A DNA stretch of 64,000 nucleotides, taken from assembly GCA_044892525.1 (NCBI GenBank), contig CM097885.1, positions 57,474,001 to 57,538,000 of the forward strand, given 5' to 3'. How positions within the stretch are numbered: the first letter of the stretch is position 1; every line of letters starts with the position of its first letter. This DNA is from Schmidtea polychroa (taxonomy: Eukaryota). Below are positions 14,712 through 15,860 of this stretch, one piece after another. The position numbers and the translations under genes were made by a program. The notes beneath the pieces were generated by a model. The model saw only the letters and a list, made by a program, of their open reading frames with translations, did not search any database and had not been told where the DNA came from.

Positions 14712-15860
14712 TTATACTCTTGTTTCGCAATATGAATATGGTGGTGGATCAGTGAGAGTCAATTGTGTCTTTCTCGTTAATATCAGAATGATGATAGTTA
14801 TGAATGTCACCGATAGGATAAGAAAACCTGTTAGTAAAATATATATGAGATATTCACAAATGTTAACTGTTAAATCAGAATCTGTTCGGCTTAGTTTATT
14901 CGTATCGATAGGTCGAGAGAGTTTTTCCATTGATTGTTTAGTAATTGTTTTGGGCAAGTATGTCGTTATAGCTACTAGTGGCTCCAATTTTGCGATTGCT
15001 TTGTCTTCTACGAAAACTGTTTGCCATCTGCCTGGTTCAGTCCTCCACTGTTGTTATTTAATTTTTATTTCTCGTCCCGCCACTAAATCAGAAATACAAA
15101 ATGTAAAAAAATGATTACCGACATCCAATATAGTCAGAATTCTCTGATTGTGATCGATGATGACCCTTTCATTGACTCCTGATTTTCTGGATATTGTTAC
15201 CGATTCATTTCCAACACTCAGAACCACACGATTAGGCTCATGTCTGGGATAAATGGACTGGGTCTCACTCTTAAACCGTGACCATAGATTTGTCGTAACC
15301 GAACCGTTTTCCAAACACAAGTTCTCATAATAATTCGCAATGATTGTATAATTGTTATTCAATTCCAACTTATCATAGCGGACGAACGATTTTCGCGAAT
15401 TGATTGTGTCGACATTTATGCTCTCAAATGTGATTTGCACCTTAACTAAGTTGACCGGATTCCAATAAATATTGATTCCATTTATCACTGGCTCTATTTC
15501 GATTAAATTCCGTAGTTCTTTTGTTTGAACTTCTATAGGAATTTGCGTATACCAGTTTGACACGTTTTGTCTTAATAACCATTGATATTTAAAATTTGGC
15601 TTTAAATTTCGGGCCGCAAACACATCTTTATCATAATTGAGTTCCACCACTGCTGTAGTAGTGTCCAGCAAATTAACGATTTCTATTTGATCTGTAATCT
15701 GGCATCGGCAACTCCATACAATATTTGTTATGGTGGAGTAGATATCAATTTTTTCCATAACATGGATTTGGTTTACCGCATATGGTAGATCAATTTTATT
15801 TCCATTCGCACTTGTTAATGACATCAGCATTGTTGTTACGAATAGTATTTTATTGATATA
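14712..15860 (-). pseudogene. Env-like type I membrane protein region (signal-like stretch, FN3-like repeats, TM helix, PPPY tail), in frame with integrase; one internal TAA
   Basis: Contains ILFVTTMLMSLTSA, beta-rich repeats with NLKPNFKY, KLELNNNYTI and SDLVAGREIKI, and four N-x-S/T sequons. The frame continues past TAA at 15054-15056 to TM LIYILLTGFLILSVTFITIIILIL, then RK and PPPY. Confidence 0.65.

Follow-up and report, generated by a model that had tools for sequence, protein, structure and literature searches.

A Ty3/gypsy retrotransposon family of Schmidtea polychroa with an upstream Env carries a predicted FN3 membrane protein in frame with integrase

Introduction

Errantiviruses with a GAG-ENV-POL gene order and an Env of the HSV/gB type have been described from Platyhelminthes, including six Schmidtea entries (Smed_errantivirus_1 to Smed_errantivirus_6), and the catalogue gives spans of 14.5-18 kb for such elements (passages and supplements of PMC13524379). 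Planarians also harbour the Burro/GYPSM1 giant LTR retrotransposons, which exceed 30 kb, encode about 4,870-4,900 aa and contain MATH, BIR and ankyrin domains (passages of PMC6431247). In rotifers, LTR elements carry an accessory ORF3 after integrase, encoding GDSL, DEDDy or small transmembrane (TM) proteins in separate ORFs (PMC5408684), and release of a glycoprotein by a signal peptide internal to a polyprotein is known from HCV core-E1 (passages of PMC5402940). The passages of PMC13524379 mention no membrane protein after integrase, the terms "fibronectin", "FN3" and "PDZ" are absent from those of its supplements that were searched, and a text search of its main text found neither "fibronectin" nor "immunoglobulin". 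The word "fibronectin" is likewise absent from the texts of PMC6431247 and PMC5408684.

Here we describe a gypsy element in a 64,000-nucleotide stretch of S. polychroa DNA (GCA_044892525.1, contig CM097885.1, positions 57,474,001 to 57,538,000 of the forward strand), the whole of which is referred to below as the window. A sequence-only reading had proposed that integrase is fused in frame to an FN3-like, PPPY-tailed membrane protein, possibly a captured host receptor or adhesin that may serve as an env-like module. We compared this region, called the tail, with its relatives in the genome, and consider what it may do.

Results

A defective copy with an open frame past integrase

The element lies on the minus strand, and its parts are as follows.

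10375-10378 (left) and 19326-19329 (right), no strand: target-site duplication CTAA
10379-19325, minus: whole element, with the CTAA duplication on either side (relatives also have 4-bp duplications)
10379-11419, minus: 3' LTR, 1,041 bp, TG...CA, with a polypurine tract ahead of it
11420-14711, minus: long 3' non-coding region from the ORF end to the 3' LTR (4.5-5 kb in relatives)
14712-15860, minus: tail ORF region, a single frame running on from the integrase GPY module
15900-17030, minus: integrase (H2C2, core and GPY module), interrupted by a stop in its frame (16791-16793)
17031-19012, minus: post-protease spacer, RT and RNase H, with frameshifts and stops
19014-19325, minus: 5' LTR remnant, the first ~310 bp, directly abutting the post-protease region

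The 5' LTR remnant differs from the 3' LTR by 4 mismatches and 3 gaps, and the copy as a whole has ~83% DNA identity to the main subfamily. Gag, env and protease are absent, and the copy lacks Env because env was lost by deletion. The window element is a dead, defective copy, and its tail protein cannot be made via the polyprotein. The sequence-only reading had overlooked the loss of gag, env and protease, the integrase stop, the RT/RNase H frameshifts, and the precedence of a terminal motif over PPPY.

It had, on the other hand, described the anatomy of 14712-15860 well: the frame continuous with integrase, the signal-like stretch, four sequons, the TM helix, the RK and the PPPY were all found.

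15801-15848, minus: internal signal-peptide-like segment, with a basic n-region, a ~12-residue hydrophobic core and small residues at the likely cut
15513-15764, minus: predicted FN3 domain 1 (residues 10-93 of a relative's model)
15240-15512, minus: predicted FN3 domain 2 (residues 94-184 of a relative's model)
14991-15239, minus: predicted FN3 domain 3 (residues 184-267 of a relative's model), interrupted by a stop in the window copy
15054-15056, minus: in-frame TAA, codon 269, private to the window copy
14856-14990, minus: Ser/Thr/Pro-rich stalk with little conservation
14772-14852, minus: transmembrane helix, residues 337-363, followed by the basic stop-transfer RK; hydropathy peak 2.8-3.3
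14736-14747, minus: PPPY, residues 372-375; PPxY is limited to the window lineage and subfamily A
14715-14726, minus: ETRV-COOH, a class I PDZ-binding-type motif, kept in 6 of 7 lineages

The hydrophobic stretch occupies residues 5-15 of the window tail, and a signal-like anatomy after integrase is alike in all seven lineages examined, as judged by residue pattern. The beta-rich region spans about 270 residues and contains exactly four sequons in the window copy (residues 99, 170, 185 and 218), with 4-11 per tail across the family. Furin sites (R-x-K/R-R), of which the sequence-only reading had seen none either, occurred in none of ten tails.

Between integrase and the tail signal, a Y-x-L-R-S motif (window 15920-15945, minus) is present in all subfamilies and recurs at the gag N-terminus of relatives; it is possibly a protease or localisation signal.

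Several other features were observed elsewhere in the window. A near-intact Polinton/Maverick at 45601-60532 has 276-bp terminal inverted repeats (98%) and encodes a double jelly-roll capsid, an integrase with a phospholipase A2-like domain, an A32 ATPase and a protein-primed DNA polymerase B. At positions 66-6470 a 331-bp unit is repeated in tandem about 19 times, the copies being mostly 97-99% identical. A 9-bp tandem repeat (29758-30400) adjoins a Tc1/mariner-type transposase ORF (30403-31503). Exon-like ORFs with PHD fingers at 24145-33580 probably belong to a host gene, and a second, unrelated gypsy pol (61639-64000, minus; 33% identical to that of the family) runs off the window end.

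The family has an Env upstream of pol

When the genome (781 Mb, four large contigs) was searched, 361 candidates came up at the DNA level, of which 40 were scored and contained 41 matches, and the protein search gave 114 near-identical copies among the 114 scored of 1,321 candidates; the region is neither a chance frame nor the one-off host fragment that the sequence-only reading had allowed for. The tail is free of stops in 95 of the 114 scored copies, and 10 of the 114 lie in open frames of at least 3,333 aa, both being counts over top scorers and biased toward intact copies. The distance from LTR to LTR was 16.6-17.4 kb in five of seven copies examined, whose LTR pairs were 98-99.8% identical, the other two having a partial LTR or insertions; over all seven relatives (one pair partial) the LTR identity was 97-99.8%, again with 4-bp duplications.

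Intact relatives encode a single ORF of ~3,330 aa. In one natural copy its order is CCHC gag, ubiquitin-like part, BCL2-like part, signal, viral fusion glycoprotein, TM, protease, RT, RNase H, integrase, signal and tail; the ubiquitin (E 0.0098) and Bcl-2 (E 0.046) assignments are weak Pfam scores under the cut-offs. The glycoprotein between gag and protease in the natural ORF of subfamily A matched a class III viral fusion protein in Pfam (PF24664, E 2.8e-93), and the signal/env/TM layout is the same in subfamilies B-F. The PR-RT-RH-IN order and the GPY-type integrase, both from Pfam on the natural full ORF, place the family in Ty3/gypsy (Metaviridae), and the best PDB sequence match of this ORF was Ty3 Gag-Pol (E 3.4e-112). 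By these assignments the family consists of Env-bearing Ty3/gypsy LTR retrotransposons of GAG-ENV-POL order; it is young and abundant. Since its Env already lies upstream of pol, the tail would be a second membrane protein, and the suggestion that it serves as an env-like module was not supported.

In subfamily D, a separate 513-aa ORF directly follows the tail (L230:7922-9460) and matches a DEDD exonuclease (PF00929, E 3.1e-5), resembling the exonucleases of rotifer ORF3. Subfamily F has, in the same place, a 486-aa ORF without a name.

The tail is predicted to fold as three FN3 domains

AlphaFold was given a 19-row alignment of natural sequences, and its best model (pLDDT 79, pTM 0.70) contained three FN3 domains; the remaining four models had pLDDT 58-65, and the tail as a single sequence reached pLDDT 35. 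Foldseek's top PDB structures were CD45 d1-d4 (E 5.9e-9), followed by fragments of fibronectin, Tie2, LAR and gp130, all at 8-14% identity; TM-scores over whole chains were low, which is usual where domain angles differ. With VIA-align, FN3 proteins matched at Z 8-9, modestly above background, and single domains at rmsd about 2.5-3; domain 2 superposed on the fibronectin extra-domain B with Z 8.4 and rmsd 2.5 over 78 residues, and the top row (Z 9.5) paired domain 3 with a bacterial glycan-binding Ig-type domain. Viral structures matching the tail were, among the rows listed, FN3 or Ig-type proteins. Protein language-model neighbours, to be read as leads, were FN3 proteins, with FNDC4/5 and IL-11R alpha at 0.85-0.90.

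Sequence searches of Pfam and PDB gave the tail no name. The up to three FN3-like repeats of the sequence-only reading agree with the model in number and in fold, though Pfam fn3 (PF00041) matched none of ten tail members. These comparisons predict that the tail consists of three tandem FN3 domains.

The tail is conserved, and its stop codon is private to one copy

A tail follows integrase in six subfamilies (A-F) and in the window lineage; the representatives of subfamilies A-E have tails that are 33-85% identical, and in subfamily F, which was found separately, the pol-bearing copy is frameshifted downstream of the GPY module. For the tail, pairwise dN/dS was 0.15-0.37, about 0.2, in the 12 of 15 pairs for which it was estimable, and that of integrase was 0.025-0.10, with most dS values near saturation. 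The ratios show purifying selection on the tail, which evolves faster than the enzymes. The two pairs furthest from saturation had dS of 0.76 for the tail vs 0.73 for integrase, and of 1.13 vs 1.20; moreover, the integrase and tail trees contain the same groupings, B+C and E+F, the integrase tree being weakly supported. The concordant trees and matching dS indicate that the tail was inherited together with pol through the radiation of the family.

The in-frame TAA at tail codon 269 was found in one of the first 30 loci and in one of 110 distinct contexts. It falls inside a predicted strand of domain 3, and a truncated form would therefore miss part of that domain. As the stop is private to the window copy, it is attributed to decay and not to readthrough; of the two origins named in the sequence-only reading, the alignment of copies thus upheld decay and spoke against a readthrough site producing soluble and anchored forms.

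Outside the S. polychroa genome two homologs were found, and direct searches and scans of metagenome and viral contigs gave none. P0006, from a metagenome protein set, is a distant homolog of 410 aa (21% identical, E 1.2e-8) with a signal, a TM segment and a terminal STLV, and its use as a lead uncovered additional subfamilies in the genome; P0007 is a 133-aa fragment. The match to a third candidate, P0005, a bacterial-type repeat protein with 20 short stretches, was dismissed as an artefact of its repeats.

A profile comparison with 28 host FN3 domains pointed to no donor gene. Domains 1 and 2 matched these weakly, with scores of 20.6 and 17.1 vs shuffled maxima of 16.0 and 14.5 (E 0.0018 for domain 1), the match being confined to the E-F strands; domain 3 had no match to them and is homologous to domain 2 (profile match, probability 88%). 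Capture of the tail from the host is plausible and agrees with the predicted fold.

BIR-bearing loci in the same genome proved to be a MATH/ankyrin/TRAF giant of the Burro1 type, whose RT is 50-54% identical to that of the family. Its ORF ends in a signal-like stretch, a ~380-aa Cys-rich ectodomain, a stalk, a TM segment and ATLV in two of three copies; the third copy read has a frameshift at the ORF end. The giant loci are L270, L272 and L274 (e.g. L274:5710-7203), and their last ectodomain has no Pfam name; no similarity between it and the FN3 tail was detected.

A PDZ-binding-type end is conserved where PPxY is not

The tails terminate in ETRL (A), ETTV (B), ETWV (D), ETFV (E), ETWV (F) and ETRV (window), giving a consensus E-T-x-V/L; six of seven lineages, and also P0006 (STLV) and the giant element (ATLV), fit [ST]-x-[VL]. 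Subfamily C is without the motif, yet has intact copies. Among other ORF ends, with tail-type ends removed, 17 of 535 (about 3%) fit [ST]-x-[VLI]. The lineages sharing the motif are related and do not count as independent draws, but the motif persists while the remaining cytosolic end varies in length and sequence. The class I PDZ-binding consensus is [ST]-x-[VIL] at a free C-terminus; motifs of this type also terminate rabies G and HPV E6, and HTLV-1 Env reportedly carries one.

PPxY was present in 97 of 109 subfamily A rows and in none of the rows of subfamilies B-E, the rows including repeats of one copy, and it is absent in F. The PPPY reported earlier is real, but with PPxY lacking from subfamilies B-F the case for a late domain is weak, and the conserved cytosolic feature is the putative PDZ-binding-type end.

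Derivatives without pol keep Env and tail

RT-RH-IN was lost in three separate deletions, one of which also took the protease, and in each of them the upstream ORF runs straight on into the tail in the same frame. At the pol-deleted loci (L241-L245, L155/L225 and L269), gag, env and tail share one frame. The subfamily A derivative gave 25 junction matches; the deletion was identical in all five copies examined, and in three of these the frame is unbroken from the zinc knuckles onward. That of subfamily E gave 7 junction matches, including an open 2,263-aa ORF, and that of subfamily F a single one. The A and E derivatives have multiplied. In three pol-less copies tested the LTRs were 99.8-99.9% identical, indicating that these copies moved recently, presumably mobilised by enzymes given in trans.

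Two of the three deletion joints lie within about ten codons of the tail signal. The junctions sit at short homologies, which favour in-frame joints without selection on the tail, and the argument from the preserved frame is weakened accordingly.

Two raw single-cell RNA runs contained 3,491 and 6,862 reads across the ORF, of 12.9 million each; the runs come from a related strain or species and carry the species label of the records with near-identical copies, and the counts stand without a silent control stretch. The reads cover the whole ORF, mostly on one strand and without an increase at the tail, and as they are mostly 95-99% identical they derive from related copies. No GT-AG joint into the tail was seen in these two runs, in which the ORF was covered, and none of the indexed sequences carrying the tail is recorded as RNA. 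The sole read joint landing at the tail corresponds to a genomic deletion subfamily and was discarded as a splice.

Discussion

We propose that the tail is a separate type I FN3 glycoprotein which acts as an attachment or positioning partner of the upstream Env in cell-to-cell spread, a proposal on which our own judgement is evenly balanced. The pattern of signal, TM, signal and TM along the ORF supports an alternating topology, in which the polyprotein would weave across the ER membrane. Gag and the BCL2-like part would remain cytosolic, the first signal would direct Env to the lumen, the Env TM would return PR-RT-RH-IN to the cytosol, the second, internal signal would send the FN3 domains to the lumen, and the last TM would leave a cytosolic end of 10-35 residues. 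Cleavage by signal peptidase would release the FN3 protein, and the signal left behind on integrase would be cut away by the protease of the element or by signal-peptide peptidase, as in HCV core/E1. The FN3 rod may then attach to a ligand displayed on the surface of neighbouring cells, and its end motif may dock the protein on PDZ scaffolds at junctions or at polarised membrane, which would position budding or cell-cell contact beside target cells.

The retention of Env and tail in the pol-less derivatives, and a C-terminal plan shared with the giant, were counted in favour of a role in spread; against it, host-modulating domains (the BCL2-like part, and TRAF, MATH and BIR in the giant) would suit signalling equally well. 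The tail could instead be a host-cell receptor mimic or decoy, with an ectodomain like that of cytokine receptors or receptor phosphatases but no signalling domain, its end motif sequestering PDZ proteins, which would aid survival of expressing cells or block re-infection. Its closest folds belong to signalling receptors (CD45, Tie2, gp130 and LAR), FNDC4/5 and IL-11R alpha are leads among its language-model look-alikes, its cytosolic end is short and without an enzyme, and it occurs in a family with BCL2-like and ubiquitin-like parts alongside a giant with TRAF, MATH and BIR (compare the passages of PMC6431247). However, the tail is fixed 1:1 with Env and stays with it when pol is lost, which suggests a shared job, although a host-protective gene could be kept in pol-less derivatives too. 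We consider a decoy a genuine possibility, at perhaps a third of the total weight.

A purely structural task, with the tail mainly tethering the Pol C-terminus to the ER membrane during assembly and the luminal FN3 domains as ballast, would account for an internal signal directly after integrase in all lineages and, with the Env TM upstream of Pol, would leave Pol anchored at both ends. It would also leave without purpose some 270 residues in the lumen, kept at a dN/dS of about 0.2, together with the 4-11 sequons and the conserved end motif, and derivatives without RT-RH-IN retain the tail all the same; we regard such a tether as unlikely. The position past integrase is the canonical one for env, and the codons after the window TAA resemble a leaky-stop context, so that the tail might be taken for an env substitute with a programmed readthrough site yielding soluble and anchored forms. 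The true fusion protein nevertheless lies upstream in intact relatives and the tail is predicted to be FN3, while the stop, one among 110 contexts and inside a domain 3 strand, sits in a copy with other stops, frameshifts and a large deletion, leaving this explanation very improbable.

Taken together, and more tentatively than the attachment role itself, planarian GAG-ENV-POL errantiviruses may be two-glycoprotein elements, in which one polyprotein passes through the ER membrane four times and yields both a class III fusogen and a separate FN3 protein, captured from elsewhere, that serves in attachment and docks on PDZ scaffolds by its end; the slot after integrase would be an exchangeable receptor-binding cassette, filled by FN3 in the family and by an unrelated ectodomain in the giant, and pol-less satellites retaining the two glycoproteins would have arisen three times. 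How Env-bearing Ty3/gypsy elements choose their target cells is an open question outside Drosophila, for which the tail is a testable candidate: a second surface protein, faster-evolving and with a predicted adhesion fold and a conserved, putatively scaffold-binding end, in an animal for which RNAi and single-cell data exist and in which stem cells are a heritable target. Should the tail be a decoy, it would be a retroelement-encoded receptor mimic in more than 100 near-intact copies. In either case the annotation is corrected, as the pol of these families extends past integrase.

A comparable division of labour between fusogen and attachment protein exists in paramyxoviruses and herpesviruses, and none is described for LTR elements in the literature searched. 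That literature holds no FN3 module in an LTR element either, and Repbase, Grohme 2018 or the eLife GitHub models may annotate the tail; the backbone is known (Burro-like, GAG-ENV-POL errantivirus), and the FN3 tail, its end motif and the pol-less derivatives are apparently undescribed. With the flatworm errantiviruses the family shares a Ty3/gypsy pol, an env of class III type that lies ahead of pol and behind gag, and a multi-copy state (passages of PMC13524379). An env row from a supplement of that work is, compared by eye, closely like the family's env, and the family very likely belongs among or adjoins the Smed_errantivirus entries.

CD45/LAR, gp130-type receptors, FNDC4/5 and fibronectin resemble the tail in features such as tandem FN3 domains, signal, stalk and single TM, whereas the tail, unlike cellular FN3 receptors, has no enzyme, no long cytosolic domain and no introns, and is only about 8-16% identical to them. 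Rotifer ORF3 offers a parallel for captured extra genes past integrase, some with TM segments, but the tail is in frame with integrase and paired with Env. HCV core-E1, as presented in the passages of PMC5402940, is like the proposed tail topology in having an internal signal within a polyprotein. Burro/GYPSM1, in the passages of PMC6431247, has one ORF in the order CCHC gag, ubiquitin-like, BCL2-like, env, PR, spacer, RT, RH and IN, an order that the family matches with its ubiquitin-like and BCL2-like parts scoring under the Pfam cut-offs; the family is smaller (~17 kb, ~3,330 aa) and in Pfam has no MATH, BIR or ankyrin domains. At their C-terminal ends, the giant and the family follow a common plan with different ectodomains.
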